49,284 nt of DNA from an uncultured Elusimicrobiaceae bacterium (GCA_964622585.1 CAZUQT010000004.1:1-49284); one strand, 5' to 3'; positions 11,539-44,755 are shown, counted from the stretch's first letter. The notes: a model not told the origin generated them from the sequence alone. Numbers and translations are program-made.

Positions 11539-11550
11539 TCAGCAGTCTGC

Positions 11551-11675: not shown

Positions 11676-11716
11676 AGCTGAATAAAGTCAACCAGATATT
11701 TAAGGAGAAAAATAAT

Positions 11717-12226: not shown

Positions 12227-12292
12227 AGCGCGGGCCTGCAAGTGGCGTGGGGGGCCTAGTAGCTGTAGATGTCCACTAAGGAGGCGGAATAA

Positions 12293-12970
12293 ATGAGACA
12301 ACTGATCCTAACGGCAGGTCTGATAGCAATGTGGCTCGTAGTAGTTCACGCTGAGAGCGGCGCGGCGCAAGGATACGAAACACTCAGAGATATTCATGGA
12401 GCGAGGCAAGCCGGTAAACTGAACCCGGCATTCCTTGGCGACTGGAAGGGACCCTCTCCAGCCGGCGCGGCGCCGGTCTCAGCCGTGCCTGGCTGCCCCG
12501 GTATAGATGACATAAAGTCCGAGTGGGTAGAGCACACGGACCCGGATGGCATCCCAGTCCGGATCAAGGAGCATCTAAATTCGCGGCTGGTTCAGTTCAG
12601 TCCGATTTTACTGTCAATACACCGCGTCCCCTACTATTTAGGGGTGTCACGCCGCGGAGACCTTCTTGCGCAGGCGGATCTGGAACCAGGCTGCCGGGTA
12701 ACCGGCACGGTGGCTTATTATGTAATCGGGGAGGAGGGAAATCCTGAAATCAACTTCGATCTCCTCATGTCCGATCCGGGTCGGGAAGAGACTTTGGCTG
12801 CACGTTTGGCCGAACTGCGCTGGTTCGATCTTAAAGACGGCCGGCGTCATCGCTGGTACAATCTAAAACTCGCCGCAAGCCGCGGGTGGCTCGTGGACGA
12901 GTATGGCCGCCCCACTCCGGACTATAGGCCGATAGAGACATTTACCAACGGGATTAATGAGTTGTATTAG
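12293..12970 (+). CDS. Secreted hypothetical protein
   Basis: AAGGAGG RBS and signal peptide (VHA). The 3' end runs into the 48-bp repeat. Confidence 0.7.
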   Translation: MRQLILTAGLIAMWLVVVHAESGAAQGYETLRDIHGARQAGKLNPAFLGDWKGPSPAGAAPVSAVPGCPGIDDIKSEWVEHTDPDGIPVRIKEHLNSRLVQFSPILLSIHRVPYYLGVSRRGDLLAQADLEPGCRVTGTVAYYVIGEEGNPEINFDLLMSDPGREETLAARLAELRWFDLKDGRRHRWYNLKLAASRGWLVDEYGRPTPDYRPIETFTNGINELY

Positions 12971-12974
12971 GGAA
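12927..12974. repeat. 48-bp dispersed repeat, copy 2
   Basis: ggccgatagagacatttaccaacgggattaatgagttgtattagggaa; same orientation as 8960-9007. Confidence 0.85.
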
Positions 12975-12978
12975 CATT

Positions 12979-13047
12979 TTCCCGAAGGTGATTCAAAGCG
13001 GGAAGGCTCTTGCGAAAGCGGAGGAGATCCTCAGGAACCGGTCGTGA
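12979..13047 (+). pseudogene. 3' remnant of a paralog of the 14838 response regulator
   Basis: FPKVIQSGKALAKAEEILRNRS* versus FPKMISPERVIEKAQEVLRDRR*, with the same TGAcATG junction to the next gene. Confidence 0.7.
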
Positions 13048-13048
13048 C

Positions 13049-13408
13049 ATGCGCATACTTATAGCTGAAGGCGATGAGTTTCTACGGGAGCTTCTGGCGG
13101 ACTTCCTGTCAGAACTCGGACATAAAACTATAGGCGCGGAAAACGGCAGGGAGCTTGTTAAACTGGCTTTATCAGAGCGGCCGGAACTTGTAATAGCCGA
13201 TCTGTATATGCCGGAGATGGCGGGTGGTTCCATGATAGCCATGCTTGATATCTATCAGGATCTGGCGGGCATCCCTATAATACTGATCACGGGTGCTACT
13301 CCACTGGAACTTTCCAATATTGGAATTCCAAAAGAGATTCCGATTTTGCCGAAGCCGTTTGATTTCGCAAAGGTTGTTGCGGTGGTTGACCGCGTGACGC
13401 GCCGCTAA
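13049..13408 (+). CDS. Single-domain response regulator (paralog of 15232)
   Basis: MRILIAEGDE...VIADLYMPEM...ITG...KPF receiver motifs. Confidence 0.88.
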   Translation: MRILIAEGDEFLRELLADFLSELGHKTIGAENGRELVKLALSERPELVIADLYMPEMAGGSMIAMLDIYQDLAGIPIILITGATPLELSNIGIPKEIPILPKPFDFAKVVAVVDRVTRR

Positions 13409-13415
13409 GGTCCTG

Positions 13416-14834
13416 ATGAATACATCTTTTCGCTTGAATTTCATAGCATTTTCCGTTTTGTTGCTGCCGGTCCTGGCTTTTAGTGTCTGCCTGTGGGCGT
13501 TCAACAGCAGTTTACCCGATGCCCTGTTTGCAGCCGTAGTTTCAACCGCTCTTGCAGCTTTTTTTGCGGCCAGGGCCATACTGTCCGGCCTGGCCCGGCC
13601 TGTGGTAAAGGCGTCTTCGGTCGTAAAAGGTTTTATAGCCGCCGATTACCGGCTTGAGTCTGTTATTAAGAAAGAGGGCTGGCCCGAGGCCGGGAGCCTT
13701 ATTTCCGGCCTTAACAGGCTGATGCTTGAATTGAGCGCTTACCGTGCCTTCCACCTTAACCAGGTGGTGGAGGACCGCGCCAAGGCCCAGGCGCTGATAG
13801 AAACAATAACCGACGGCGTCCTGCTTCTGGACGACCGCGGGCAGCTTATTTATTCCAACAGGAAAGCTCTTAACCTGCTTTGTATCCCGGAACAGGAACC
13901 CGGCATTTCGCTGCCTGGGTCCGTGCGGCAGGAAGCCTTTTTAGCGGTCTTAACACGGATTATGTCATCGGAGGAAAACAACCTGAAGGCCGAAGTCGAC
14001 GTCCCGGTTCCAAGCGAGCCTTTCCTGAGCGGACGATTGGAGGCAAACCTGGAGCCCGCGGTTAAAAGTTTCCGCATCACTTCACGGCACTTCCAGCTGG
14101 CGACGCTTAAACGTCCGGGCCGCGTTATAGTCCTGCGCGATGTTACCATGGAAAAGGAAATTGAGAGCGCGCGTGAAACGCTTTTTAATATGATAACCCA
14201 CGATATGCGGGCGCCGCTTACAAGCATACAGGGCTACGCGCAGATCATAAAAAAAACCGTTCCCCTGGCCCCCGCTACGGAGAAGTGCCTGGATGTAATA
14301 TTACGCTCTTCCACCCGGCTGAATGGCATGATAGAGGACATTCTCAACACTATAAAGCTTGAGCACGGCGAGATGAAGCTGAATCCTGTAGCTGTTAACG
14401 CGGGGGATCTGTGCGCGCGTGTGTTCGAAGTTCACGAACCACTGGCCGCGCGGAAGAATATAAAACTTTCCTTTGTCCCTCCGCCTGAAAAGATAGAGTT
14501 CTGCGGCGATATGGCTTTGCTGGAGCGGGTAATAAGCAACCTTGTCGGCAATTCGCTGAAATTCACCGCGCCCGGCGGAACCGTGACCATTTCCTGCCGC
14601 CGGGATGCGGGCGTGGCGAGATTCTCCGTCGAGGATAACGGGCCTGGTATCCCGAAAGAGAAGCACGCTGAAATTTTTAAAAAATACGCCCAGCAGGAAG
14701 AACATAAATTTATGGGTTTCGGCCTCGGACTTGCCATGTGCAAGCTGGCGGTGGAACTGCATGAAGGGTGCATCTGGGTAGAATCGGAAGAGGGGAAAGG
14801 AAGCAAATTCGCCTTTTCCATCCCGGCAAAATAA
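13416..14834 (+). CDS. Sensor histidine kinase (2 TM, HAMP-like, PAS, HisKA, HATPase)
   Basis: H-box THDMRAPL, N-box NLVGNSLKF, DNGPGI and GFGLGL. Confidence 0.92.
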   Translation: MNTSFRLNFIAFSVLLLPVLAFSVCLWAFNSSLPDALFAAVVSTALAAFFAARAILSGLARPVVKASSVVKGFIAADYRLESVIKKEGWPEAGSLISGLNRLMLELSAYRAFHLNQVVEDRAKAQALIETITDGVLLLDDRGQLIYSNRKALNLLCIPEQEPGISLPGSVRQEAFLAVLTRIMSSEENNLKAEVDVPVPSEPFLSGRLEANLEPAVKSFRITSRHFQLATLKRPGRVIVLRDVTMEKEIESARETLFNMITHDMRAPLTSIQGYAQIIKKTVPLAPATEKCLDVILRSSTRLNGMIEDILNTIKLEHGEMKLNPVAVNAGDLCARVFEVHEPLAARKNIKLSFVPPPEKIEFCGDMALLERVISNLVGNSLKFTAPGGTVTISCRRDAGVARFSVEDNGPGIPKEKHAEIFKKYAQQEEHKFMGFGLGLAMCKLAVELHEGCIWVESEEGKGSKFAFSIPAK

Positions 14835-14837
14835 CCT

Positions 14838-15230
14838 ATGGCTAAAATACTTATCGTCGACGACGAGCCCGCTATAAGAGAACTGTTTAAATATGTTTTC
14901 GAGGACGCGGGGCACGAGGTGGCGCTGGCGAATAACGGCCTGGAGGCGCTTGACGCGCTTCAGGGCGGCGTCCCGGATTTTATGGTTCTGGACGTCTCAA
15001 TGCCGGAAATGACCGGGACGCAGATGGTCGTGGAGCTCGGCCGCCGCGCGGCGCGGGACCCGCGGCTGAACAATATCCCATTTGTCGTAATGACCGGAGA
15101 AAATTTCATGGAGTCGGAATTGAACAAAGTTTTTTCCGGGGCCCCGGGTTTTGTCTGCTTTTTTCCGAAGATGATATCACCCGAGAGAGTAATTGAGAAA
15201 GCGCAAGAGGTTCTCAGGGACCGGCGGTGA
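14838..15230 (+). CDS. Single-domain response regulator
   Basis: KILIVDDE...VLDVSMPEM...MTG...PK. Confidence 0.9.
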   Translation: MAKILIVDDEPAIRELFKYVFEDAGHEVALANNGLEALDALQGGVPDFMVLDVSMPEMTGTQMVVELGRRAARDPRLNNIPFVVMTGENFMESELNKVFSGAPGFVCFFPKMISPERVIEKAQEVLRDRR

Positions 15231-15231
15231 C

Positions 15232-15597
15232 ATGCACATACTTATAGCTGAAGACGATGAGCTTTTAAGGGCGCTTCTGACGGACTTTCTGTCTGAACTG
15301 GCACACGAGGTTAAGAGCGCCGAAAACGGCGCGGAGCTGGTTAAACTGGCTTTAGCCGGGCGGCCTGACCTGGTGATAACCGACCTTCATATGCCTGAGA
15401 TGGCGGGGGGGTCTATGATCGCCATGCTGGATATGTATCCGGAGCTTGCGGGGATCCCCCTTATAATAATTACCGGCGCAACGGCGGCGGAGCTTCGTGA
15501 TATGGGAATTCCGAAGGAGATCCCCGTTTTGCCGAAACCCTTTGATTTCGCCCGGATAGCCGCGGCGGTTGACCGCGCGGCACTCCGGGAGAAATAG
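15232..15597 (+). CDS. Single-domain response regulator
   Basis: MHILIAEDD...ITDLHMPEM...ITG...KPF. Confidence 0.9.
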   Translation: MHILIAEDDELLRALLTDFLSELAHEVKSAENGAELVKLALAGRPDLVITDLHMPEMAGGSMIAMLDMYPELAGIPLIIITGATAAELRDMGIPKEIPVLPKPFDFARIAAAVDRAALREK

Positions 15598-15716
15598 ACA
15601 GCCACCTATTCACGCTTTGCTCGTTGACAAAGACCGGCTGCGGGTTATGTAAATTTTCCTCTTTTCGTTATTTCTTCGGGATTCAGGGCTATATAGTGCA
15701 TAGACTATATATACCT

Positions 15717-17444
15717 ATGATGCTCAGGAGCGGGCTATCTTTACGCAGTTGGACGATAACACAGGCGGCTTGTGCGGTTCTTGCGTTTTATCCCTGCGCT
15801 TTTGCCGGAGACGCGGGTTCCTCCGCCGCCTCTTTCCTTAAATTCTCTCCCAGCCCGCGCGGCGCCGGCATGGGGGAGGCGTATACCTCCATCACCGAAG
15901 ACGCCTACTCCGCTTGGTGGAACCCGGCCGGGCTTGGCAGTGTGGAGAGCCCGGAGCTTGCCGCCACCTATAACGACTCCATGGAAGACGTGACGACCCA
16001 GTATTTGTCCGTGGCTTATCCAATACGTTATGGTTCCACCCTTGATTTTAACATTACCCGGCTCAGCGTCCCTCCTTTCCAAGGCTATGACGCGCAGGGC
16101 ACGAAGAGCGCCAAGGTGGAATCCTCTGATATCGCGGTGGGGGGGGCATATGGCAGGGTTCTCCTTAAAGACGAAATTGAGCGGCCGTTGCTGAACGTGG
16201 GAGCGGGGCTTAAGGTTATAAGCGAGAAACTGCATAGAGCCTCCGCAAACACGGCCGCGCTGGACCTGGGCGCTGTTTATTACATAAGGCCGGCCAATTA
16301 CTGGATGAGCAAGGCGCCGGCGCAGGAATTCCGCGTGGCCGTGGCGGTAAGGAATATCGGGCCGGGGTTGAAGTTCGACCGGCGCTCATCCCCTTTGCCC
16401 ACGTCCGCCACGCTGGGCGGCTCCTGGCATTCCCACCCCGGCGGCAGCGCCAGTCTGATTCTGAGCCTGGACCAGACCTATGCGAACGATGAAAAATATT
16501 ACGCAGCGTTCGGCGCCGAATATGTGGCCTTCCAATTACTCTCTCTCAGGGCCGGCTACCGCACCGGCCAGGCTATAGGCAGCGGCCTGCGCATAGGCGT
16601 GGGTTTCCGGCTTTCTCTCATGGACATAGATTATTCCATGTCCCCTTATGGGGAACTGGGTGCCATGCACAAGTTGGGTGTTTCCATGCGGCTTGGTCCG
16701 CCTGTGGCTAAACAACCGCTTGCGGGCAGGACCCAGCGGGTGGAGAAGGCTAAATTGATGGCCAGGAAAGAAAAGATAGAAAAGCTGGATATATTCGCTA
16801 ATGACTTCCTGGAACTGGCCCGCAAAGACCTGGCCGCGCGCAGGTATGTTTCCGCGGATGGCAACATCAACAAAGCCTTCAACCTGGAGCCGGGACTTAA
16901 AGAGGGAGACTGGGGCCGCAGGCAGAAGCGCTTGGCCGCGGTGATAACCGGGCTTAAGCTGGCGGACATCCAGGCCAGGGAACAGCTGCTTTCAAAAGAC
17001 ACCGAACAGTCAAATACCGGGGCTGAGGCTATAAACGCCTATGTGGAGGGTAAGGACCTTAAAGCTTTCCTGCTTACGCACGCGGCGCTGGGCTCGAATA
17101 TGCGCGGTGACGCCATGTTCGAGGAGCTGCTTTACATAATGAGTGACCTTGTTAAGATCCATGTCCGCCGCGACGAGATCCTGCCGAGGGAAGCTCTTAT
17201 TAAGGAAAAGCTCAGGAAAGCCGCGAAAGGTTTTTATATACGGCAGTTCGATACTGCCGCCAAGGAATGCGAGGAAGTGTCCGTATTGGACGAAGAGAGC
17301 CCTGTGGCCTGGACAAGGTTGGGCTCCGCCTACTTTATGCTTGGTGACAGGGAAAAAGCTAGAAAGGCCTATCAGAGAGCGCTGGCTCTCAATCCAGGCG
17401 ATCAGATTACGATGAAATTTATGGAAGCGCAGGGCTGGAAATAA
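15717..17444 (+). CDS. PorV/PorQ-family outer-membrane beta-barrel fused to a C-terminal TPR region (start approximate)
   Basis: FLKFSPSPRGAGMGEAY...WNPAGL (PorV/FadL-like N-terminus), amphipathic strands ending DYSMSPYGELGAMHKLGVSMR, TPR AWTRLGSAYFMLG...YQRALALNP. Confidence 0.85.
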   Translation: MMLRSGLSLRSWTITQAACAVLAFYPCAFAGDAGSSAASFLKFSPSPRGAGMGEAYTSITEDAYSAWWNPAGLGSVESPELAATYNDSMEDVTTQYLSVAYPIRYGSTLDFNITRLSVPPFQGYDAQGTKSAKVESSDIAVGGAYGRVLLKDEIERPLLNVGAGLKVISEKLHRASANTAALDLGAVYYIRPANYWMSKAPAQEFRVAVAVRNIGPGLKFDRRSSPLPTSATLGGSWHSHPGGSASLILSLDQTYANDEKYYAAFGAEYVAFQLLSLRAGYRTGQAIGSGLRIGVGFRLSLMDIDYSMSPYGELGAMHKLGVSMRLGPPVAKQPLAGRTQRVEKAKLMARKEKIEKLDIFANDFLELARKDLAARRYVSADGNINKAFNLEPGLKEGDWGRRQKRLAAVITGLKLADIQAREQLLSKDTEQSNTGAEAINAYVEGKDLKAFLLTHAALGSNMRGDAMFEELLYIMSDLVKIHVRRDEILPREALIKEKLRKAAKGFYIRQFDTAAKECEEVSVLDEESPVAWTRLGSAYFMLGDREKARKAYQRALALNPGDQITMKFMEAQGWK

Positions 17445-17453
17445 GGAGGGACC

Positions 17454-18395
17454 ATGGAAATTTTGATAATAGCCCTTATTCCCCTGTCCCTGTTGCTCCT
17501 TGGCGCCGGGTTCCTTGTGGTGGCACAGGTTTCCGGTTTCATGCAGTCCGTGTTCTTTAACAGCCGGCAGAATTTCTCCAATATGGTCATACAACAGTAC
17601 ATGGAACGCATTGCGCTGGCGCAGGGGCAGCTTTACCAGAGAAAGCAGGAACTAGAAGGAATGTCCGTAGAACTTTCTTTGTCCAATCAGGAGCTGGGCC
17701 GTCTGAACGATATGAAATCCAAATTCCTCTCCATGGTGGTACACGATGTGCGCACGCCGCTGGCCTCAATACGGGGCTTCAGCGAGCTGCTGCTAAAGAA
17801 GAACGTGGGCGAAAAGGAAGCGGCGTACCTTAAGAACATCGTTAATTCCACGAACCAGCTCGGGCGCCTTATAGCTGATCTGACGGACCTGGCCATGATA
17901 GAGGCCGGGAAATTGAAAATGGAGAAGGCCGTTTTTAATTTTCCCGAGGTGGCTAAAGATATTCTGCCCGGCCTTTCTATAAACGCCCAGATAAAAGGAG
18001 TGGAACTAATAGTGCATGATTACCCTGAGGGAACGAGCGTGGATGGGGATAAGTTCCGGCTTTCGCAGGTACTGATGAACCTGGTGAACAACGCTATTAA
18101 GTTCACCCCCGCCGGGAAAAAAGTGGAGATATCCTTCAGGAAGGAAGGCAGATCGATTGACACCCTTGTAAGGGATTCCGGCATAGGAATACACCCGAGT
18201 GAAACGAAAAGGATCTTTGAAAAGTTTTACCAGGCTAAGTACCAGAAAGACGAAAAACTGCGCAAACAGGGCTGGGGTCTGGGGCTTTCCATAGCGCAGG
18301 AGATAGTGCGCGCGCATAATGGTGACATCGGCGCGACCAGCACCGGGCTGGGGAAGGGCTCAACTTTCTGGTTTAAAATACCGGTCAGCGCTTGA
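17454..18395 (+). CDS. Membrane-anchored histidine kinase (1 TM, HisKA, HATPase)
   Basis: VHDVRTPL, NLVNNAIKF, DSGIGI and GWGLGL. Confidence 0.92.
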   Translation: MEILIIALIPLSLLLLGAGFLVVAQVSGFMQSVFFNSRQNFSNMVIQQYMERIALAQGQLYQRKQELEGMSVELSLSNQELGRLNDMKSKFLSMVVHDVRTPLASIRGFSELLLKKNVGEKEAAYLKNIVNSTNQLGRLIADLTDLAMIEAGKLKMEKAVFNFPEVAKDILPGLSINAQIKGVELIVHDYPEGTSVDGDKFRLSQVLMNLVNNAIKFTPAGKKVEISFRKEGRSIDTLVRDSGIGIHPSETKRIFEKFYQAKYQKDEKLRKQGWGLGLSIAQEIVRAHNGDIGATSTGLGKGSTFWFKIPVSA

Positions 18396-18429
18396 AGCAC
18401 GGTAGAAGACTTGGATTCGGAGGAATGTA

Positions 18430-19167
18430 ATGGATATTACAACACTGCTGGGATTTGCCGGGGCGGTAGCTCTGATAGCAGCCGGAGTAGCGGGCAACCA
18501 GATTTCGTCCTCGCTTATAAATATGCACGGGCTGGTGGTCGTTTTCGGGGGCACCCTGGTCGCCACGCTCATAAACACTCCGCTGAAATTCGTCACCCGC
18601 GCGGTGACGGAGCTGAGCTGGATCTTTAAGGAAAACGGCGAGGCCTCACCGGAAAAACTGATCCCGGTGCTGGTCAGCCTGGCCGAGCAGGCCCGGCAGC
18701 GCGGTTTTTCCGCTCTTAAAGAAGCCGATCCGAAGCTGGCCGACGGATTTTTAAACAGGGCCGCCACCGCGGCACTGGAATACAGCGATTCCAATTTCGT
18801 CAGGCAGGTGCTGGAGCAGGAGATCAACCAGAACGTGGACGATATGAACGAAGTGACCAACGTCTACCGCACGATGGGGGTAATGTCGCCCATGTTCGGC
18901 TTACTCGGGACCCTTATCGGCATTGTGGAAGTACTAAAGGACCTTGCCAACCCCGAGAGCGTCGGTCCGGCCATGGCCGTGGCCATAACCTCGGCCTTTT
19001 ACGGCATTCTTTTCGCTAACGTGGTCTGCGTGCCCATCTCAGGCAAAATGAGGGCCAAGGTCTGGATGGAAGTGCGCATGAAATCCATGATACTTGAAGG
19101 TATACTGGAAATTATGAAAGGCAGCGTGCCGCTGGTGGTTGAAAGGCGGCTGCAGTCTTTTTTGTAA
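18430..19167 (+). CDS. motA: MotA/PomA-family stator A subunit
   Basis: MDITTLLG, VVFGGT, ARQRG, SPMFGLLGTLIG, GPAMAVA...FYG...N...PISGK. Confidence 0.88.
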   Translation: MDITTLLGFAGAVALIAAGVAGNQISSSLINMHGLVVVFGGTLVATLINTPLKFVTRAVTELSWIFKENGEASPEKLIPVLVSLAEQARQRGFSALKEADPKLADGFLNRAATAALEYSDSNFVRQVLEQEINQNVDDMNEVTNVYRTMGVMSPMFGLLGTLIGIVEVLKDLANPESVGPAMAVAITSAFYGILFANVVCVPISGKMRAKVWMEVRMKSMILEGILEIMKGSVPLVVERRLQSFL

Positions 19168-19181
19168 GGAGGGTAAATAGT

Positions 19182-20708
19182 ATGAGATATATGATCAAAA
19201 ATCCATTTATTCGTTTCGTCGCCTCGCTAGCAGTGCTCGCGGCGCCGGCGCTTCTGCGCCCGGCACCGCTTAGCGCCCAGTCGATGCCGTTCGAGGATAA
19301 AGCCAGGTACGAGCGCACACTGGAGCAGAAGGCCGACGAAGTGCTGGTGCGGCTGCTGGGGCCGAACCAGGCCAAGGTGGTGGTGGAAACCGTAATGGAC
19401 TTTAACCGCACCGAGAAACTCGAGTTCGCGCCTAAAGAGAAGACAGAGCCGTTCAAATGGCAAGCCGCCGGCGGCGACGCCCAGTCCGGCGACTACCTGC
19501 TCCCTGGTTTTCCTGCCGCCGCTTCCTCAGGCGGGGATGAAAAGAGGTCCTACAGCCGCCAGATGCTTTACCCGTCGGCTTTTATCAAGCGGATGTCTGT
19601 GAGCATAATACTTAACCGCGATTTGCCCGAGGCGGACGCGGAAAACGTGCGCAGGGTGGTTTCGGAAATACTTATGCTCGATGTTAAGAGGGGGGACCAG
19701 CTTACGGTGCTGAAGGCGCCGTTCGCGCCGTTGTGGCGCACCATCTGGTACACTCCCGAGACCGTCAGCCTGGTACTGAAATACATAATGCTGGGCGTGA
19801 TGGGGATCATCTCCATAGTCGTGGTCGCCATAGGGTTCCTTAAACTGGCCGGCGCGATGAGCACGATGGCGAAGGTGCAGCAGAGCCACCAGATCACTAT
19901 GGACCTGGGGAAAGGCGCCGGGCCCGGCGGGTCGGACCTACCGGCGCTGGGCCTGGGCAGTCCTGTGGATACGGTCAGGTCCGCACGCGATAAACAGGAG
20001 GATGCCGGGCAGCCCGAGAACGGCGAAGTGGTCTTTAATGTCAGGCCGGCGCAGGTCCCGTTCCTGATTAATATGATGGTGAACGAGGATCCGGCCAATG
20101 TGGCGCTGGTGGCCGGCCACCTGCCTCCTGACGTGCGCGGTGAATTCCTCAGGAAGCTTCCCTCAGCTTTCTCCTCCGACGTGATCATCAGCATGAGTAA
20201 AATACGTTTTGTAGAGCCGGATGTCATAAATACGCTCAAGGACGAGTTGGAAAGGCGGCTGAGCGGGACAGTCGGGGGAATAGAAGGGGCGCTGAACGCC
20301 ATTGGAAGCGTGAACCTGCGCGCCAGGCTGGGAATGCTCACGGAACTTCAGAATAAGCAGCCGGAACTGGCCGCTGAAGTCAGGCGGCACCTGCTTCTGC
20401 CGGAAGATCTCGCCATGTTGGCGGAGAAAGACCTTTCACTCATGGTCAGCGCGATTAAGGTTGAGGAATGGTCTTCTGCCCTTTTCGAACTGCCGGATAC
20501 CGTAAGGCAGAAGATTAAAGGACAAATGGCGGAAAGGACCTGGCTGATGGTAGAGCAGAGCATGAGCTATGGCACACCGTCGGCAAGGAAAACGGAAGAG
20601 GCTATGGAGCGCATAATGGCCAAGGCGGCGGAGTTGATAAAGGAAGGCCGTATAGCCAATCCACTGGATGGGCTGCGCATGATAACCGGCGATCAGCCGG
20701 CGGCTTAG
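19182..20708 (+). CDS. Fusion of a FliF C-terminal ring domain (RBM3-like), a TM helix and FliG middle/C-terminal domains
   Basis: Signal peptide; ERTLEQKADEVLVRLLGPNQAKVVV..DFNRTE...IKRMSVSIILN...RGDQLTV (FliF_C-like); TM helix; EDPA (EHPQ-like), GG linker, PELAAEVRRHLLLPEDL and EGRI (FliG-like). Confidence 0.82.
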   Translation: MRYMIKNPFIRFVASLAVLAAPALLRPAPLSAQSMPFEDKARYERTLEQKADEVLVRLLGPNQAKVVVETVMDFNRTEKLEFAPKEKTEPFKWQAAGGDAQSGDYLLPGFPAAASSGGDEKRSYSRQMLYPSAFIKRMSVSIILNRDLPEADAENVRRVVSEILMLDVKRGDQLTVLKAPFAPLWRTIWYTPETVSLVLKYIMLGVMGIISIVVVAIGFLKLAGAMSTMAKVQQSHQITMDLGKGAGPGGSDLPALGLGSPVDTVRSARDKQEDAGQPENGEVVFNVRPAQVPFLINMMVNEDPANVALVAGHLPPDVRGEFLRKLPSAFSSDVIISMSKIRFVEPDVINTLKDELERRLSGTVGGIEGALNAIGSVNLRARLGMLTELQNKQPELAAEVRRHLLLPEDLAMLAEKDLSLMVSAIKVEEWSSALFELPDTVRQKIKGQMAERTWLMVEQSMSYGTPSARKTEEAMERIMAKAAELIKEGRIANPLDGLRMITGDQPAA

Positions 20709-20717
20709 AGAGGACCT

Positions 20718-22253
20718 ATGGAAACACAGATAAATAAAAATTCGGTTTTCTCCGGAATATTTCCATCCGGCGAACCCGCGCCCCAGCCCGCTCACGTTAC
20801 GCAGGCGCCTAAACCCGCCGTTTCAGATGAACAGGTGGCCGCGTTGAATAAAAAAATAGAGGAGATGGAGCGTAATATAGTGGGGCAGCTTGAGAAAAAA
20901 CTTTCGGAACACGTTCCTCCTCCCCCTTCGCCGCCCCCGTCCGCCCTGGCGCCGGCGGTGCTATTAAAGATGACGGAAATGGAGAACCGTCTGAAAGACT
21001 TTCAGGAAAGATTCCTTCTTGGCGCCGCGCAGGCGAAAAACATGGAGGAATCTAAAATAGGAGCCCGCCGCGAAATAGCGGACCTGCTGAAGGTGGTGCG
21101 CGAGCAGCAGAAGTATTCGGAGCTGGACCGGCAGATGCACGACCAGCTTGAAAAAGCCTGGTCGCGCGTGGAGGAGATGGAGAAAAGGATGATGGAGGTT
21201 TATACCGCGGCGGCTAAAAAGCCGGCTGAGCCCGCCGCGCAGGCGGCCTCTCCGGCGGAAATAGCCGCCGAGGTGAGGAAAGCCGTGAACGCCGGGTTTG
21301 AAGAGCGTTTGAAACCCCTGGAGACCGCGCTGAAAAATGCCGCCGCTCAACTATCGGCGGAAATGCCCGCTGAGGTGTCTAAAGCCGTAGCGCTCGGTGT
21401 CGACGGACGCCTGGCGCCTTTGGAGACCTTGCTGGCAAGTGTTGCCGCAAAGAACGAGGCCGCCTCATCGACGTCGCGTGGAATAGCGGGTCGGGTTGCG
21501 GAGCTTTCGGAAGCGGTAGACGTCCGGCTTGCCGGTTTCTCGGCGGAAATACGTCAGCTGCATATTGAGGCTTTTGCCGGGAAGGAACGGGTGGAGGATA
21601 TCTTGGCGGAAGTAAAAAAAGATGTTCTTTCCTCGGTCAAGGAGGCTTTCGCGGAAAGCGGCGGCGCGATCGTAAGGCATATAGATACCATCGCCATTGA
21701 TGAACGTGAGAGACTGGACGAGCTGGGGAAGATGCTTGTTGCCCATGTTGACGAACTTGCCGCTCGCGGCAGGGATGCCGCGGTGAAAATAGATGTACTG
21801 GAAAGTTATGTTAAATCGGGAAATGAGAGCGTAGTCTCAGCGGTATCATCTGCGCGGCAGCAGCTTGAGAAGGCTCTGCTCGCGCGTATTGACGAAGCGG
21901 CATTCCGGGCCGCAGCGGAAAACGCCGCGCAACTTGAAAAAATTAAAGGGGCGTTCGGATTGGCGGCCTCGCACACCTCCGCTTTAGCCGCTGTGGCGGA
22001 AAGCATTTCGGGAATTGAAGCCGGTCTGGGTGGCACGCTTGCCTGCCTGAAAGCATTTGTTAAGGACCTGGAACCGGTAAACCTGGAGGCTGTGCTCGGT
22101 GTTTCAGGCGCTATTATACGCAGGAGCTTTGAATCCGCAGGCGAGCTGGCGGCCGGACTGGAAAGAGAAACGGTTCTGCTCGCCAGAGCAAAGGGTGAAA
22201 TAGAGGCGAACCTGAAAAGTCTGGCCCATAAATCCGGCGGGGAGGGGAAATGA
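20718..22253 (+). CDS. Cytoplasmic coiled-coil protein with Pro-rich linkers
   Basis: GAGGA RBS, heptad-rich helical sequence, PPPPSPPP linker, no TM helix. Confidence 0.75.
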   Translation: METQINKNSVFSGIFPSGEPAPQPAHVTQAPKPAVSDEQVAALNKKIEEMERNIVGQLEKKLSEHVPPPPSPPPSALAPAVLLKMTEMENRLKDFQERFLLGAAQAKNMEESKIGARREIADLLKVVREQQKYSELDRQMHDQLEKAWSRVEEMEKRMMEVYTAAAKKPAEPAAQAASPAEIAAEVRKAVNAGFEERLKPLETALKNAAAQLSAEMPAEVSKAVALGVDGRLAPLETLLASVAAKNEAASSTSRGIAGRVAELSEAVDVRLAGFSAEIRQLHIEAFAGKERVEDILAEVKKDVLSSVKEAFAESGGAIVRHIDTIAIDERERLDELGKMLVAHVDELAARGRDAAVKIDVLESYVKSGNESVVSAVSSARQQLEKALLARIDEAAFRAAAENAAQLEKIKGAFGLAASHTSALAAVAESISGIEAGLGGTLACLKAFVKDLEPVNLEAVLGVSGAIIRRSFESAGELAAGLERETVLLARAKGEIEANLKSLAHKSGGEGK

Positions 22254-23122
22254 CGGGCGAAGAGTCTGTATTCTCCTGTGTTAAGCGTCAGGACATCCCT
22301 GCTGAGGCTGCGCGCCGCGCGCCTCCAGCCGCTCCGCCGCCCCCGGCGCAACAGCAGCAGTCGGACAGTCTGGACGTAAAAATAGCGGACTTTGATATAA
22401 AGTTGAAAGAGCTGGAAGCCGCCTCTTTAACTTCGGCGACTTCCGGCCGGAAGGTGGAGCACCTGGAGAAGACTATAGCTGAACTTGGCGGAATTCTCGA
22501 GGGTTACCGGCTGAAAAACCAGGATGAGAAAGACGCTTTTATCCCGTACCTCGAACAGTTAAGAAAAGACATATCCGCGGTTTGTTACAGGCTGGCGGCG
22601 GTGGAAGGATCGGGACAGCGGTTCGCCGCGGCGGATTTAACCGGGATTTCCGTGAATGTTAACCTGTTTGAGCGGCGTCTGAAAAAGCTTGAGACTGGAA
22701 TTTCCTCCGAACTTGCGGAGCGTTTTTCCGCGCTTGATTCCGCGTTCGGCGAGACGTCGCGGAAGGCCGGCTTGGCGCATGAAACGGCTTTTGGAAATGC
22801 GCGGCGTGTTGACAAGGTCGAGGAACGAGTGGCCAGGCTGGCCTATGTGGAGAGCCGGATGATCAGTATTGAGGGCAAATTGGAGAGGATAAACGAGTGT
22901 GACGCACTTGTGCAGGCGCTAAGGGTAAGCGTGGAGGGCATGGAAAAGAATGTGAATTTCGTTCTGCACGAAGCCGCCGGTATTTCTGGCGAGCAGAATA
23001 GAATAGGTTCCGATTTTGAATCGCTCTCGCGGCAGGTTAAACAGTTGACCGCATTGTTTAATCATTTCCGGAGGGAACTGGCGTTTTTAATCCCTAAAAA
23101 ACAGGAAAGCGGCGGCCAATAG
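22250..23122 (+). CDS. Coiled-coil protein
   Basis: ATGA overlap with the upstream gene, Pro/Gln-rich N-terminus, heptad pattern. Confidence 0.72.
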   Translation: MTGEESVFSCVKRQDIPAEAARRAPPAAPPPPAQQQQSDSLDVKIADFDIKLKELEAASLTSATSGRKVEHLEKTIAELGGILEGYRLKNQDEKDAFIPYLEQLRKDISAVCYRLAAVEGSGQRFAAADLTGISVNVNLFERRLKKLETGISSELAERFSALDSAFGETSRKAGLAHETAFGNARRVDKVEERVARLAYVESRMISIEGKLERINECDALVQALRVSVEGMEKNVNFVLHEAAGISGEQNRIGSDFESLSRQVKQLTALFNHFRRELAFLIPKKQESGGQ

Positions 23123-23134
23123 CCGGATGCGATT

Positions 23135-23827
23135 ATGAGCGTGCACAGGCAAAGACGTGACGAGGTAGAAAACCAGTTGAACAGGGGCGCTCTCTGGGCC
23201 GTAACCTATGGCGACCTGATGAGCTACCTGATGATATTCTTCCTGGTTCTGTTCTCCTTTTCCGTAGCCAAGACGGACAAGACGAAAAGCCGAAAGTACG
23301 AGGAGTCCTTGGGCAATATACAGAAGGCTTTCGGCGGCAAGGCGGATTCCCGTGGTCTTGAACGCGCCAAGGCTAAGGAAAAAGAGTCGCAGGTTGAGAC
23401 TAACTTAAAGGAATCAATGCAGGTGGGCGAACTGGCCAGCCTTGTCCAGGTCCAGTCCAGCGAGCGCAAAGTTAAGCTGGTGCTTACCGAGGGGGTGCTT
23501 TTCGCCTCCGGTAAATCCGATTTAAAGGAGCCCGCTAAAAAAGTGCTGGCCCCCATTGCAGCTGAGTTGAAAAAACTCCCGAATGATGTCCTGATCGAGG
23601 GACATACCGACAATGTGCCGATAAAAAATGGCAAATATACCTCCAACTGGGAACTCTCGATGGCCCGCGCCTACAGTGTGCTCCAGTTCATGCAGGAACA
23701 GGGCCTTCCAGCGAAACACCTGGCTGGCATAGGTTACGGGGATACCCGTCCGGTGGGAGACAACTCCAGCGCAGAAGGTCGCGCCAAAAACCGCCGGATA
23801 GAAATCTCATTGATGAAAGTGGACTAA
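23135..23827 (+). CDS. motB: MotB/PomB-family stator B subunit with an OmpA-like peptidoglycan-binding domain
   Basis: WAVTYGDLMSYL (conserved Asp), EGHTDNVP, SNWELSMARA and NRRIEI. Confidence 0.92.
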   Translation: MSVHRQRRDEVENQLNRGALWAVTYGDLMSYLMIFFLVLFSFSVAKTDKTKSRKYEESLGNIQKAFGGKADSRGLERAKAKEKESQVETNLKESMQVGELASLVQVQSSERKVKLVLTEGVLFASGKSDLKEPAKKVLAPIAAELKKLPNDVLIEGHTDNVPIKNGKYTSNWELSMARAYSVLQFMQEQGLPAKHLAGIGYGDTRPVGDNSSAEGRAKNRRIEISLMKVD

Positions 23828-23871
23828 CCTTTGACAGCGGTATCATCTTCCTGAGTATTTTTAAGCTTATT

Positions 23872-23895
23872 CCGGACAGCTCCTGCGCTGTCCGG
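23872..23895 (+). terminator. Hairpin after motB (possible terminator)
   Basis: CCGGACAGC/GCTGTCCGG 9-bp stem; U-tract is weak. Confidence 0.4.
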
Positions 23896-23908
23896 TTAGA
23901 GGTCTGCT

Positions 23909-23965
23909 GTAAGGTCTTAAAAATAAATTTAGTGGTTTATAGGGCGACTGGACCGTTACAATATT
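23909..23965 (+). promoter_or_regulatory. Promoter motif C (ATAAATTTAGTGG-N21-TACAAT), copy 1
   Basis: 46/57 ungapped identity to 39272-39328. Confidence 0.7.
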
Positions 23966-24165
23966 TGTGGCCCCATCTCGATACAGCCGGGTGGATGTTT
24001 ACACGGCTGGTGCTTTTAGTTCCGTTACGTTGGTTGGCTGGCCAATTTAAAGTCCCGTCGGGCTGTTTTGAGTCGCCCCGCCGGGGATTTGATTTGCCGG
24101 GTATTTTTTGTTATTCTCACGAAGGCGATGGGCCTCCCACGCCGGCGCGGCGAGACCGAACTGTT

Positions 24166-24918
24166 ATGATAAAAATGAACAGGCGCAAGATCTTGATAGT
24201 GGATGACGACAATGTCTGGTTGCGCTCCATAAGCAACTTTTTCAAATTCTTCAACTACGATGTCCGCACGGCGCTTACCTGTGCGGAGGGGCTCGAGGCA
24301 GCCCTGCAGCACCGGCCGAATTGCGTCCTGCTGGATTTCCACCTGCCCGACGCCGAGGCCGACTTATTTTGCACGCGTATAAGGGCGGACCAGAACCTGA
24401 AAAAGACGCCTATCATAATTGTAAGCGTCGACGGCGAGCAGGAGTGCGGTTCCTATTTGAAATGTGAGGCGGACGGTTTTGTTATGAAAGGCGGCCCCCT
24501 TAACACGATACGCATGATGGTGGAAAGCATGCTGCGCCGCGTATGCTGGGAACGAGGGATAATTGAAAAAGGGGATATCCGTCTCGAGACGGAAAATCTA
24601 ATGGTTTTCAGGGACTTAAAACCCTTTGCCCGCCTCTCCCTGGAACAGTTCCGGTTCCTTTTCCTTCTTATCGAAAAGAGCCCCTGTTTTGTCAGCGAGA
24701 ACGACATCCTGGAATTTGTCTTCAGCGCGTATATTGCCCCGGAAAAATTTGACTCTTTGCGCGGGCTGGCCAGCCGAATGCGCGCAAAACTCGGCCGGCG
24801 GCTGGGCAGGCGCATAAAATACAAGAGCTCCAGCGGCTGGATATATACGCAGCCGCGGGAAGATAAACGCAGAGCGGCGAAAGAGCGGCAGGCCGACAAA
24901 GACCTTTTCCACCAATAA
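24166..24918 (+). CDS. Response regulator, REC plus OmpR-like winged helix (start 24166 or 24175)
   Basis: KILIVDDD...LLDFHLPD receiver; C-terminal FRFLFLLIEK...LASRMRAKLG...GWIY. Confidence 0.85.
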   Translation: MIKMNRRKILIVDDDNVWLRSISNFFKFFNYDVRTALTCAEGLEAALQHRPNCVLLDFHLPDAEADLFCTRIRADQNLKKTPIIIVSVDGEQECGSYLKCEADGFVMKGGPLNTIRMMVESMLRRVCWERGIIEKGDIRLETENLMVFRDLKPFARLSLEQFRFLFLLIEKSPCFVSENDILEFVFSAYIAPEKFDSLRGLASRMRAKLGRRLGRRIKYKSSSGWIYTQPREDKRRAAKERQADKDLFHQ

Positions 24919-25105
24919 TTCCGCATTTAATTCTGCGACGGAAAACACGAAATCCGCTCACGCAGTTGTGATTTACTTTCACGCCTGTTAATTCTATATT
25001 AACTGCGCAGACAGGGGTATTGGGGGTAGAGTGCGGTCGTCGTATGAAAAAACGGCTCCCGGCGGACTTCCGAGCCGGGAGCCGCCTATTTCCAGGAGAA
25101 CTCTT

Positions 25106-27262: not shown

Positions 27263-27346
27263 CCCGAAAAGCACATCCGCGGCCGCCGCTTTATACCACC
27301 CGTCCCTCCTGCTTGCGGCTTTTGCGTCACCTTTATGTTAAAACTA

Positions 27347-27419
27347 TTGACATTTGTGGAGAGAATTGTATAAACTAACATATCTAACATATCTAATAAA
27401 TCTAACATATTTAATATAT
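27347..27419 (+). promoter_or_regulatory. Sigma70-type promoter followed by five tandem 9-bp repeats (CTAACATAT consensus)
   Basis: TTGACA at 27347, TATAAA/TAAACT at about 27369-27376; repeats at 27375-27419 run into the ATG. Confidence 0.75.
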
Positions 27420-44752: not shown

Positions 44753-44755
44753 TTA

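Follow-up and report, generated by a model that had tools for sequence, protein, structure and literature searches.

Comparison with described motors

The core of the flagellar motor comprises the FliF MS-ring, FliG, and MotA5B2, and the RBM1/2 domains of FliF house the export gate in flagella. Engineered fusions of FliF to FliG work in Salmonella. Besides its motor, Agl-Glt has TPR proteins, barrels in the outer membrane, and a coiled-coil protein in the cytoplasm, and we know of no FliG-type rotor in ExbBD-TonB, TolQR-TolA, AglRQS-Glt, or ZorAB. These systems are ion-driven units of the MotA/ExbB family that perform envelope work, as described in part of PMC12505986. The Bacteroidota T9SS/gliding machinery (GldLM/PorLM, GldKN/PorKN, SprA, PorV, and SprF/PorG) links a proton-driven inner-membrane motor to barrels of the PorV/PorQ/PorP kind. 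The coupling of these barrels runs through a C-terminal tail in the periplasm, by which the inner-membrane motor moves them (PMC12635249). GldLM-driven tracks drag SprF/PorG-type barrels, a precedent for motor output at a barrel. In nonflagellated Elusimicrobiota, motAB and fliG homologues were noted in a 2022 preprint, which called their role enigmatic.

A seven-gene operon was examined in a 49,284-nucleotide (nt) stretch (here, the window; GCA_964622585.1, CAZUQT010000004.1:1-49284) from an uncultured Elusimicrobiaceae bacterium. It has the appearance of a small, proton-driven motor of the envelope with a job other than swimming, and no description of its architecture was found in the literature. 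All seven genes, at positions 15717 to 23827, are intact open frames:

15717-17444, + strand, barrel-TPR protein (NF033709, TPR); ORF opens at TTG 15624
17454-18395, + strand, histidine kinase (HisKA, HATPase_c)
18430-19167, + strand, MotA/PomA-type stator A subunit, 245 amino acids (aa), four transmembrane (TM) segments (PF01618)
19182-20708, + strand, rotor-like FliF/FliG fusion, 508 aa (Pfam, AF2, Foldseek, family profile versus PDB)
20718-22253, + strand, CC1, cytoplasmic helical/coiled-coil protein, 511 aa (heptad signal, S-x-F motif)
22250-23122, + strand, CC2, cytoplasmic coiled-coil protein, 290 aa (heptad signal, S-x-F motif)
23135-23827, + strand, MotB-type stator B subunit, 230 aa (MotB_plug, OmpA)

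Intergenic distances calculated from ORF coordinates were 9, 34, 14, 9, -4, and 12 bp, in order, which confirmed the tight, co-oriented cluster of the original prediction (gaps of 9 to 34 bp and one 4-bp overlap). The barrel and kinase genes described ahead of the motor genes were both found, but the kinase gene sits between the barrel gene and motA. Unlike in the flagellar motor, three genes separate motA from motB, the operon includes an outer-membrane barrel-TPR protein, a kinase, and S-x-F coiled-coil proteins, and its genome lacks the export gate, rod, hook, and filament as well as FliM/FliN.

Stator and rotor proteins

MotA matched MotA_ExbB (78.1 bits; Pfam) and aligned end to end with the PomA, MotA, and MotP models of NCBIfam and over its full length with solved MotA/PomA proteins (9luc_C, 2.6e-36; 8brd PomA, 1.1e-33). 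It scored as flagellar type (165 to 168 bits for PomA/MotA models versus 28 bits for TolQ), which sets it apart from the other 5:2 motors. Its best score was below the NCBIfam equivalog cutoff (168.3 versus 237), and all equivalog cutoffs for MotA, MotB, and FliG were missed, which weighs against the motor reading. Among MotA orthologs, P154 and P202 were conserved in 42/42 sequences, R89 in 39/42, K97 in 37/42, and D/E98 in 40/42; Lys97 aligns with a conserved Glu of PomA/MotA, and the acid follows one residue later, which also weighs against a motor. MotB (MotB_plug, 46.8 bits; OmpA, 76.6 bits; Pfam) consists of a plug, a TM segment with the channel Asp (D27, kept in 37/37 orthologs), and an OmpA-like peptidoglycan-binding domain. 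Its alignment with solved stators of flagella likewise ran from end to end, and its closest PDB relatives were flagellar MotB proteins (6ysf_A, 1.2e-34; 8ucs_A, 2e-34). The stator encoded here is of the flagellar MotA/MotB type, and its proton-path (channel) and torque residues are conserved.

The fusion protein matched YscJ_FliF_C (33.3 bits, aa 133 to 181), FliG_M (46.7 bits, aa 295 to 363), and FliG_C (52.4 bits, aa 388 to 491) in Pfam. Its N-terminal half contains a signal peptide or first TM helix (aa 8 to 24) and a periplasmic RBM3/S-ring-like module (aa 37 to 181). A TM segment at about aa 202 to 220, within a modeled helix at aa 192 to 243, is followed by a conserved juxtamembrane segment and a disordered linker, to aa 288. 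The C-terminal half contains FliG_M (aa 289 to 363), a Gly-Gly pair (aa 365 to 366), and FliG_C. Foldseek matched the model to the middle and C-terminal domains of FliG (1lkv, 1.6e-11) and to the FliF S-ring (8z4g_1; E value, 2.2e-4; TMt, 0.61; 24% identity), and the family profile compared with PDB matched FliG (2e-34) and the FliF S-ring chain 9yh6_Oj (4.9e-6 over aa 37 to 181). By these matches, the protein is a single-chain mini-rotor in which the ring-building RBM3 module of the FliF S-ring precedes a TM helix and the middle and C-terminal (torque) domains of FliG.

The predicted FliF-FliG fusion was therefore borne out as a fused rotor-like chain, but its FliF part is one RBM3-like module plus a TM helix, without RBM1/2, and its FliG part has the M and C domains without the N domain. 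Covalent joining of the two parts makes FliG_N unnecessary. An engineered Vibrio fusion (PDB 8z4d/8z4g; chain name, [quoted passage not shown]) likewise holds both proteins in one polypeptide but joins them at full length (945 aa), whereas the natural fusion lacks RBM1/2, the FliF C-terminal tail, and FliG_N.

The main torque-helix charges of FliG were kept (K/R452 and E458 in 43/47 rows each, with two gapped rows included in the 47), Q459 was present in 41/47, and the Gly-Gly hinge was invariant in 30/30 rows of alignment A1. Other FliG motifs were kept in part (EHPQ to EDPA, MFVF to LLLP, and the second torque-helix acid to Gln), which weighs against the motor reading. A conserved 57-aa insertion (aa 76 to 132) inside the RBM3-like module occupies the position where FliF has its beta-collar and contains invariant residues; this collar-like insertion had a pLDDT below 50 in the AF2 monomer, also a point against the motor reading.

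Barrel-TPR protein and relation to the T9SS

The barrel protein (575 aa) has a signal-peptide-like helix (aa 5 to 23), a PorV-fold barrel with 14 main strands (about aa 80 to 325), and an all-helical C-terminal TPR domain (aa 352 to 571, nt 16770 to 17429; TPR_1/TPR_2, Pfam) that is probably periplasmic. In NCBIfam, it exceeded the cutoff of the PorV/PorQ family model NF033709 PorV_fam (154.1 versus 90 bits) and fell under the PorV and PorQ equivalog cutoffs (67.6 versus 250 and 89.3 versus 220). The best PDB folds for its AF2 model (pLDDT, 84.4) were PorV chains (8gl6_F; E value, 1.4e-15; 6h3i_F; E value, 4.8e-14; TMt, 0.72), with FadL matched only at 7e-7.

In addition to these PorV-like matches, a distant SprA relative was detected in the genome (130.9 bits versus a cutoff of 200); GldM was not found there in a search that had no positive control. 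In contrast to T9SS/gliding systems, the motor is MotAB with FliG instead of GldLM, and a TPR domain of 220 aa forms the barrel tail. The SprA-like protein occurred in 113/118 genomes of family f2 and 50/89 of family f16, and the fusion occurred in 1/118 and 1/89; the motor is therefore not its obligate partner, and this distribution weighs against a motor linked to the T9SS. The T9SS connection suggested by the original prediction thus keeps the PorV fold of the barrel, but the link is weak, and the SprA-like protein is not codistributed with the fusion.

Coiled-coil proteins

Neither CC1 nor CC2 matched a family at cutoff in Pfam or NCBIfam, with CC2 giving weak SMC and coiled-coil matches below cutoff. 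For CC1, hydropathy indicated no TM segment or signal peptide, and there was no PDB relative and no reliable Atlas match. By a crude heptad score made for this analysis, windows above threshold made up 17.5% of CC2 (0.6% in shuffles; standard deviation [SD], 0.9) and 7.9% of CC1 (1.3% in shuffles; SD, 2.0). Both N termini carry an S-x-F peptide (S9-F11, nt 20742 to 20750, in CC1; S6-F8, nt 22265 to 22273, in CC2), followed by a Pro/Ala-rich linker and coiled-coil segments in CC1 and a Pro-rich linker in CC2. The S and F were invariant in 37/37 aligned N termini (alignment A2), the loose pattern was matched by 48/54 ORFs between the fusion gene and motB, and on contig C278 the motif also followed another FliG-like gene. 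This shared element, an N-terminal S-x-F peptide with a Pro/Ala linker, is newly reported here.

Conservation and paralogous modules

The order barrel-TPR, kinase, MotA, fusion, coiled coil(s), and MotB recurred in 46 Elusimicrobia loci. Conservation of both gene order and sequence extends over an entire class. Among loci with enough flank, MotA was upstream of the fusion in 39/42, MotB was downstream in 30/31, the barrel was upstream in 32/33, and the kinase was present in 33/37; the gene-neighborhood linkage on which the prediction depended is kept. The operon was missing from 3 of 20 genus genomes (G214, G226, and G303). G214 is the closest relative, is 100% complete, and has DNA 94% identical over the right end of the window; the operon is therefore dispensable, which weighs against the motor reading. 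Also newly reported are six FliG-like paralog types in the genus, each adjoining its own motAB. Four of these modules open with a barrel-TPR gene, and in a fifth the TPR protein is free and secreted.

Proposed working of the operon

We regard it as slightly more probable than the contrary that the operon encodes an ion-driven envelope module of rotor and stator that works independently of a flagellum. That the stator and rotor form a functional nonflagellar pair is likely; that the output is at the barrel is a tentative proposal, somewhat short of an even chance. The fusion would assemble as a ring in the inner membrane, with MotA5B2 units held to peptidoglycan by MotB. Proton flow would cause MotA to push the FliG_C torque helix, and the ring would turn. 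Through the S-x-F peptide, CC1 and CC2 may dock on the ring from its cytoplasmic side, replacing FliM/FliN structurally, and the periplasmic S-ring and collar may contact the barrel of PorV fold encoded with them, at its TPR tail. By analogy with Bacteroidota, inner-membrane energy could be turned into outer-membrane work, in which the barrel is moved or gated in the service of surface movement or the handling of surface proteins. The motor would be controlled, or its state reported, by the membrane kinase, which has no sensor domain, and by single-domain receivers encoded nearby.

Kinase and two-component genes

The operon kinase has one N-terminal hydrophobic helix (aa 5 to 23; hydropathy), a short coil, and HisKA (65.1 bits) and HATPase_c (91.4 bits) domains (Pfam), with no sensor domain recognizable by Pfam or hydropathy. 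Two-component genes were very abundant in the window. One set (13010 to 15597) precedes the operon (Pfam):

13010-13408, + strand, REC
13416-14834, + strand, PAS histidine kinase
14838-15230, + strand, REC
15193-15597, + strand, REC

This set was linked to the operon in closer relatives only. In 10 loci, a relative of the PAS kinase (52 to 65% identity) preceded the barrel gene; the second REC was 56 to 71% identical in 11 loci and the third 61 to 82% in 10, some of these loci being without the PAS kinase. A small REC-like ORF was found between the barrel and kinase genes in L035, L037, and L053.

The operon could instead be mainly a signaling device (a surface, mechano-, or proton-motive-force sensor), in which load or proton-motive force is read by the kinase and receivers and the barrel-TPR protein is the outside contact. 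We consider this unlikely, although it is favored by the single TM helix and missing sensor domain of the kinase, by receiver genes beside or within the operon, and by the richness of the window in two-component genes. In the 33 loci with the kinase it was 69 to 88% identical, whereas the rotor fusion was 44 to 74% identical across loci; with the kinase better conserved than the rotor protein, a signaling role fits as well as a mechanical one. One paralog has a coiled-coil partner with a C-terminal HATPase_c domain, and in another, genes for a HAMP kinase and two receivers adjoin motAB. However, the most divergent loci (L050 and L055) keep the barrel, fusion, coiled coil, and MotAB without a kinase, and three of the six paralog modules had no kinase gene in the stretches read, one of the three having a receiver. 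The kinase could equally well be an input controlling the motor.

Stator anchoring and phage defense as alternatives

The TPR or Sel1 proteins PflA/PflB and MotX position stators in Campylobacter and Vibrio motors. The barrel-TPR protein could similarly serve as a static anchor in the outer membrane by which the stators are positioned, with the moving output being cytoplasmic, through the coiled-coil proteins; this is quite improbable. The free secreted TPR protein resembles the barrel tail (28% over 229 aa) and is encoded right after a MotA-MotB-MotB cluster, and coiled-coil genes always lie between the rotor gene and motB in the loci and directly follow the FliG-like gene in four of six paralog modules, all as such an anchor would suggest. 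However, no cytoplasmic load is apparent, and the periplasmic S-ring module and invariant insertion residues point to a periplasmic job beyond anchoring.

A Zorya-like antiphage system, in which a MotAB-type unit and a long cytoplasmic coiled coil signal envelope damage, is very unlikely. MotB matched ZorB models (E value, 1.9e-24), a similarity that amounts to generic MotB homology, and the coiled-coil proteins and the absence of the operon from three genus genomes would fit. However, MotA, the fusion, CC1, and CC2 had no PADLOC match (hence no ZorA), MotA aligns end to end with its flagellar counterparts and has no tail, and Pfam, NCBIfam, and PADLOC showed neither a nuclease nor any other effector domain among the operon proteins. 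Zorya systems are not known to have a FliG rotor, outer-membrane barrel, or kinase, and class-wide conservation also argues against this assignment.

Absence of a flagellum

Matches to FHIPEP/FlhA, Flg_bb_rod, Flagellin_N, FliMN_C, FliP, and YscJ_FliF (RBM1/2) numbered zero in the whole genome bin (86% complete, 374 contigs), and each family was recovered in four flagellated control genomes. The lack of axial and export genes first noticed in the window thus holds genome-wide, and with the conserved linkage it supports a nonflagellar stator-rotor engine, of which rotation, ring, and output are inferred. The operon is not part of a flagellum. FlhA was present in 9/401 phylum genomes, so flagella exist in the phylum. 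The word "repurposed" presumes an evolutionary direction beyond what the small tree shows.

Two readings were already disfavored, one by intact frames and conserved residues and the other by the absent flagellar families. Decaying, functionless leftovers of a lost flagellum, for which the FlhA still found in the phylum might speak, are highly improbable: the seven frames are intact, no internal stops occurred among the fusion-gene matches listed at E values of ≤1e-100, little or no variation occurs at channel and torque residues, synteny is conserved, the family has expanded to six paralog modules, and both a new fusion of domains and a new peptide motif, itself conserved, are present. Least probable of all is that these are the fliF/fliG/motAB genes of a real flagellum encoded elsewhere or in the unassembled 14% of this fragmented bin, since FlhA was also found in 0/20 other genus genomes, 17 of them at least 90% complete. 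Among 51 phylum genomes with a clear ortholog (best fusion match at an E value of ≤1e-100), 50 were without FlhA. The exception, G320, encodes its own canonical-length FliG apart from the fusion, and the other six FlhA-bearing genomes examined likewise have a FliG of this length, and the FliG of flagellated relatives (320 to 356 aa) formed its own clade (support, 0.81).

Operon layout and genomic setting

Seven plus-strand genes occupy positions 15717 to 23827, encoding, in order, a barrel-TPR protein, a histidine kinase (HK), MotA, a FliF-FliG rotor-like fusion, two coiled-coil proteins (CC1 and CC2), and MotB, with intergenic gaps of 9, 34, 14, 9, −4, and 12 bp. The set was classed as a putative flagellar-type rotor-stator core in use outside the flagellum. 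The source metagenome-assembled genome (MAG) comprises 3.36 Mb in 374 contigs, with a completeness of 86.3% and a contamination of 5.1%, and the named relatives of the window proteins were from Elusimicrobia/Elusimicrobiales MAGs, barring a few entries titled just “bacterium.” The base composition of the operon was ordinary (GC, 0.53 to 0.57), a tRNA scan of the window found no tRNA, and no integrase-type domain was found among the approximately 37 window ORFs scanned. Counts of promoter-like sites (12 versus 7.3 [standard deviation {SD}, 2.6] in shuffled sequences) and terminator-like sites (18 versus 14.9 [SD, 4.4]) were not informative, and a look-up of RNA data sets found none for the operon.

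Two-component genes were unusually dense in the window (13010 to 15597, 23932 to 28005, 31693 to 35479, and 39442 to 42136). About 10 window ORFs contained a receiver, including three single-domain receivers directly upstream of the operon, and the window further encodes two hybrid kinases, a PAS kinase, OmpR-type regulators, an HTH-REC protein, and an HD-domain protein.

Rotor-like fusion protein

The original prediction named the fourth gene (19182 to 20708, 508 aa) a FliF-FliG fusion. Its layout, drawn from Pfam, an AF2 model, Foldseek, phmmer, and comparison of the family profile with the PDB, was as follows:

aa 8 to 24: hydrophobic helix, a signal peptide or first transmembrane (TM) segment
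aa 37 to 181: RBM3/S-ring-like module (alpha-beta-beta ... beta-alpha-beta)
aa 76 to 132: insertion of 57 residues inside the RBM3-like module
about aa 202 to 220: TM segment, within model helix 192 to 243
after the TM segment: nearly invariant juxtamembrane stretch, disordered linker, FliG_M, invariant Gly-Gly, FliG_C

FliF assembles into a ring of about 33 to 34 subunits, and FliG has three domains (N, M, and C), of which FliG_N binds the FliF tail. The S-ring match of the fusion exceeded its Pfam cut-off (PF08345, 33.3 bits; cut-off, 23.8), the family profile matched the FliF S-ring chain 9yh6_Oj (4.9e-6), and Foldseek aligned the model with 8z4g_1 (TMt, 0.61; 24% identity). Like FliF, the fusion carries this module between two membrane segments; unlike FliF, it is without RBM1/RBM2 (the YscJ_FliF domain), as no PF01514 match was found on the fusion or elsewhere in the genome (control genomes were positive). 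Its likeness to FliG lies in the M and C domains, whereas a FliG_N domain was not found in the fusion, which scored 66.4 bits against the FliG model TIGR00207 (cut-off, 226.7). The predicted fusion was thus borne out for RBM3, FliG_M, and FliG_C and not for FliF RBM1/2 and FliG_N.

The insertion (aa 76 to 132) sits at what we take to be the position of the FliF beta-collar. It was poorly modelled in the AF2 monomer and contains seven residues that are invariant in the family alignment (F91, Y105, P108, G109, F110, Y124, and P131). In the FliG torque helix, K/R452 was present in 43/47 alignment rows and E458 in 43/47 (two rows were gapped), and the second acid is replaced by Gln459. EDPA stands in place of the EHPQ motif, the E, the P, and an R further on being retained, and MFVF reads LLLP. 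The open frames and conserved residues across relatives argue for a stator-rotor contact that would be working, with details of its own, and make a relic unlikely.

Stator proteins

Residues 1 to 244 of MotA aligned with solved MotA/PomA structures (9luc_C, 2.6e-36). P154 and P202 were kept in 42/42 orthologs and R89 in 39/42; Lys97 aligns with the conserved Glu of PomA/MotA and is followed by D/E98, which puts the acid one position further on. MotB contains a plug, a TM Asp, and an OmpA-like domain, with the MotB_plug and OmpA models both above their cut-offs. The channel Asp (D27) was found in 37/37 orthologs, and the nearest solved structure was a flagellar MotB (6ysf_A, 1.2e-34). The pair resembles the flagellar-type stator in its four-TM MotA with two conserved prolines and charged cytoplasmic residues on the FliG-facing side and in the Asp, plug, and OmpA-like peptidoglycan-binding domain of MotB and differs from it in missing the equivalog scores and in having motA and motB apart, with three genes between them. 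Given that both proteins fell below the NCBIfam equivalog cut-offs (best MotA model, 168.3 bits versus 237; best MotB model, 169.8 versus 283), they appear to be divergent members of the flagellar type.

Barrel-TPR protein and kinase

The barrel-TPR protein belongs to the PorV/PorQ family (NF033709, 154.1 bits; cut-off, 90), with PorV and PorQ equivalog scores below their cut-offs. Its AF2 model (pLDDT, 84.4) contains a signal-peptide helix, 14 main strands (aa 80 to 325), a short linker of low confidence, and a TPR-like domain made up entirely of helices (aa 352 to 571). Because the number of strands is even, this C-terminal domain should be periplasmic. The top PDB folds were PorV chains of type IX secretion system (T9SS) translocon complexes (8gl6_F, E = 1.4e-15; 6h3i_F, 4.8e-14, TMt 0.72), and FadL was a much weaker match (7e-7). 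The operon kinase contains HisKA/HATPase_c domains and one N-terminal hydrophobic helix; no sensor domain was found in it.

Twenty more ORFs in the genome were similar by blastp to the PorV-like barrel (26 to 32% identity; for example, on contigs C208, C3, C11, C165, C153, C22, and C39), a large PorV/PorQ-type family for a 3.4-Mb genome.

Coiled-coil proteins and the S-x-F peptide

CC1 and CC2 had no Pfam or NCBIfam family above cut-off, no useful sequence relative in the PDB, and no reliable Atlas neighbour. With a heptad signal and neither a TM segment nor a signal peptide, both are predicted to be cytoplasmic coiled-coil or helical proteins. ORFs of at least 90 aa between the fusion gene and motB were compared in the 36 of 46 loci that contained both genes, and 48 of these 54 ORFs shared a loose N-terminal motif with the consensus K-(K/D)-S-(I/V/L)-F-(S/A)-x-(I/L/V)-x-P, followed by a Pro/Ala-rich linker and a coiled coil. 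The six ORFs without the motif were three MotA genes, a 124-aa fragment, a duplicate of the fusion gene, and an ORF that starts in a poly-Ala run. In an alignment of 37 N-termini (both window proteins and 35 of the 48 motif-bearing ORFs), the S and F were invariant (37/37). The same motif opens a 389-aa coiled-coil protein on contig C278, encoded after a different, TM-anchored FliG-like gene. We read the S-x-F peptide as a putative docking peptide for the rotor complex. Complex prediction with fusion aa 221 to 508 (fusion family alignment, A1) and the first 80 residues of CC1 (alignment of coiled-coil N-termini, A2) scored 0.01 (mark, 0.32), which gives no answer and counts neither way.

Conservation of the operon

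Matches to the fusion family profile (E ≤ 1e-10) were found in 165/401 Elusimicrobiota genomes, including 20/20 other genomes of the genus, and the family was nearly missing from two large families of small genomes (f2, 1/118; f16, 1/89). Linkage was examined in 46 loci from a pattern scan, with one genome per species; almost all were titled Elusimicrobia or Elusimicrobiota and a few merely “bacterium.” These loci repeated the arrangement of barrel-TPR, HK, MotA, and fusion, then a coiled-coil gene or two and MotB, as expected from the proposed linkage of the motor genes with the barrel and coiled-coil genes in relatives. Where flanking sequence was sufficient, the barrel was present in 32/33 loci, the HK in 33/37, MotA immediately upstream in 39/42, and MotB downstream in 30/31. 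Among the 43 loci with a fusion identity of >40%, identity to the window ranged from 56 to 84% for the barrel, 69 to 88% for the kinase, 56 to 89% for MotA, 44 to 74% for the fusion, and 64 to 90% for MotB, and was just 23 to 64% for the coiled-coil genes. Upstream, the PAS kinase and a pair of receivers were kept in some loci, mainly of closer relatives, and the genes downstream of the operon were not conserved.

The two most distant loci (L050 and L055) encode the barrel, fusion, coiled coil, MotA, and MotB, with the kinase absent. The frame with the fusion gene is open there for about 820 to 840 aa, and the protein may be far longer; their coiled-coil N-terminal peptide reads (G/S)-L-L-A-A-L in place of S-x-F. 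One MAG contains a tandem duplication (L031, 5714 to 13253) consisting of fusion, coiled coil, MotA, second fusion, coiled coil, and MotB.

The operon of the window was not found in three genomes, G226, G303, and the closest relative, G214, which is 100% complete. DNA of G214 is 94% identical to window positions 43243 to 47299, and five other genomes of the genus carry that segment at a distance of 3 to 10 kb from the fusion gene; concern over mis-binning of the window contig was eased on these grounds. The operon therefore represents a real presence/absence difference. No G214 counterpart of positions 9001 to 29000 was found beyond paralog-level matches of 64 to 81%. The operon is dispensable and varies between close relatives, perhaps owing to functional overlap of the paralogs. 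The difference from G214 that includes the operon is large (compared over about positions 9000 to 43000).

Independence from the flagellum

The original prediction also called for the absence of axial and export genes, and the genome-wide search agreed with it. The export gate (FlhA, PF00771; FliP, PF00813), rod/hook (PF00460, Flg_bb_rod), flagellin (PF00669), and FliM/FliN (PF01052), all parts of the bacterial flagellum, had no counterpart in the 86%-complete source genome (0 matches each), and four flagellated control genomes were positive for them. Because this bin is incomplete, FlhA and the fusion were also sought across the phylum. FlhA was found in 0/20 other genomes of the genus and in 9/401 genomes of the phylum. 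Full-length fusion matches (E ≤ 1e-100) were present in 51 genomes, including the source genome, and one of these (G320) encoded FlhA.

All seven of the FlhA-bearing genomes examined (of nine) encoded a separate FliG of 320 to 356 aa, and five of the seven had long FliG-like paralogs besides the FliG of canonical length. In a FliG_MC tree (30 sequences, 220 columns, FastTree, midpoint root; the 121-aa fragment L066 was excluded), the 320- to 356-aa FliG clade (support, 0.81) was separate from the fusion clade (0.81), with weak backbone support. The operon is independent of the flagellum. Flagellated Elusimicrobiota lineages seem to exist, as FlhA was carried by G062, G064, G104, G121, G170, G242, G320, G326, and G386.

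Paralogous modules

The source genome contained five FliG_C matches, a sixth FliG-like gene detected by blastp (on C278), and six MotA_ExbB matches. The paralogous loci were resolved through the well-assembled relative G214, in which FlhA was not found and whose paralog proteins were mostly 91 to 100% identical to those of the source genome (74 to 75% for the C278-type FliG and the LysM protein). Named by contigs of the source genome, the types were as follows:

C314/C96 type: fusion-like, MotA, MotB, MotB, secreted TPR
C199/C256 type: barrel-TPR, HK, fusion-like, coiled coil with HATPase_c; facing MotA, MotB, HAMP kinase, REC, REC
C278 type: MotA, MotB, TM-anchored FliG, S-x-F coiled coil
C225/C344 type: barrel-TPR, FliG_MC with TPR, 814-aa coiled coil, small ORF, MotA, MotB
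C49 type: barrel-TPR, fusion-like, MotA, MotB, MotB, REC, secreted repeat protein, PorV barrel, LysM protein

With the type in the window, there are six FliG-like types, all of which adjoin motAB; in four the first gene is barrel-TPR, and one more type encodes a free TPR protein. The 450-aa coiled coil that ends in HATPase_c (C199, 2398 to 4371, minus strand; locus L083 in G214) follows a FliG-like paralog and is a coiled-coil partner fused directly to kinase chemistry.

Proposed mechanism and alternatives

These genomes establish which parts are present, that they are conserved, and that they are independent of flagella. By homology with the flagellar motor, the fusion would form an inner-membrane ring via its RBM3 module, MotB would fix MotA5B2 to peptidoglycan, and proton flow would turn MotA against FliG_C and rotate the ring. 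Gene linkage suggests that the S-x-F coiled-coil proteins may sit on the cytoplasmic face instead of FliM/FliN, that the TPR tail of the barrel may meet either the S-ring and collar in the periplasm or the stators, and that the kinase and receivers may control the motor or read it. Work on the outer-membrane barrel is a serious candidate for the output of the motor, if short of probable, because barrel-TPR genes recur in the paralogous modules, the rotor retains a periplasmic module that is conserved, and there is a precedent from Bacteroidota: in the available part of one account (PMC12635249), a proton-driven track drags SprF/PorG barrels through a periplasmic tail.

The main rivals to work on the barrel are that the module is a signalling or mechanosensing device and that the barrel has a static scaffold role. 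A tie to the T9SS fared less well. The operon resembles that system in its PorV/PorQ-family 14-strand barrel. The genome encodes a 1,802-aa outer-membrane protein that is a distant relative of the translocon SprA/Sov and scores below the model cut-off (C189, 888 to 6296, minus strand; locus L056; TIGR04189, 130.9 bits; cut-off, 200). A SprA-like protein was present in 355/401 Elusimicrobiota genomes (281/293 high-quality genomes), including families without the fusion. This distribution rules out the motor as an obligate partner of a SprA-like translocon, and a fixed partnership with the SprA-like protein of the phylum is unlikely. The GldM/PorM model TIGR03517 had 0 matches in the genome and 0 in the control set, so that search was uninformative. 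The passages of reviews available to us describe the T9SS as specific to Bacteroidota/FCB, and no link between the T9SS and Elusimicrobia was found in the literature search. Zorya, which comprises a long-tailed ZorA together with ZorC/ZorD or other effectors, was rejected, since PADLOC returned no match for MotA, the fusion, CC1, or CC2, and hence no ZorA, with MotB matching ZorB models; other defence systems were likewise dismissed after PADLOC.

We tentatively propose, with appreciable doubt, that free-living Elusimicrobiota have a family of FliG/MotAB rotary motors that do not depend on a flagellum, with six paralogous modules in one genus, and that each is a self-contained trans-envelope machine with a single-chain FliF(S-ring)-FliG rotor, its own stators, S-x-F partners replacing the C-ring, and a PorV-type barrel moved or gated via a periplasmic TPR tail. 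Such a family would represent a novel class of envelope motors and a living example of a FliG rotor without type III export, either a relic or a reduction. To our knowledge, every use of FliG lies within the flagellum, and the non-flagellar 5:2 motors known to us (Exb, Tol, Gld, Agl, and Zor) are all without a FliG rotor. The conservation and multiplication of a FliF-FliG/MotAB module in a mostly flagellum-less phylum would show that the rotor-stator core can stand alone and would bear on the old question of the use of a rotor without an export apparatus. If the rotor acts on PorV-type barrels, it would provide a second, independent inner-membrane powering of outer-membrane proteins, beside GldLM. 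With 508 aa in one chain, the fusion would also provide structural and biophysical studies with a minimal rotor of natural origin.

The operon, the anatomy of the fusion, the S-x-F proteins, and the paralog family were not found in a search of article full texts; the one mention located was a paragraph of a 2022 preprint. That preprint states, in the part available, that free-living Elusimicrobiota are without the structural genes of flagella and that they nonetheless carry numerous homologues of motAB, flbD, and fliG, whose role is enigmatic (10.1101/2022.07.08.499144); the proposed motors would assign a function to these genes. Elusimicrobia do not appear in the available portion of a survey on the relatives of MotAB published in 2025 (PMC12505986).

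Language-model look-alikes of the fusion in the Atlas include clusters of proteins (480 to 680 aa) with FliG domains, most commonly from Cloacimonadota, Bdellovibrionota, and Bacteroidota. As unverified leads, they hint that this kind of fusion may reach beyond Elusimicrobiota. A further Atlas cluster, from Thermodesulfobacteriota, combines FliG_M and YscJ_FliF_C in 362 aa.
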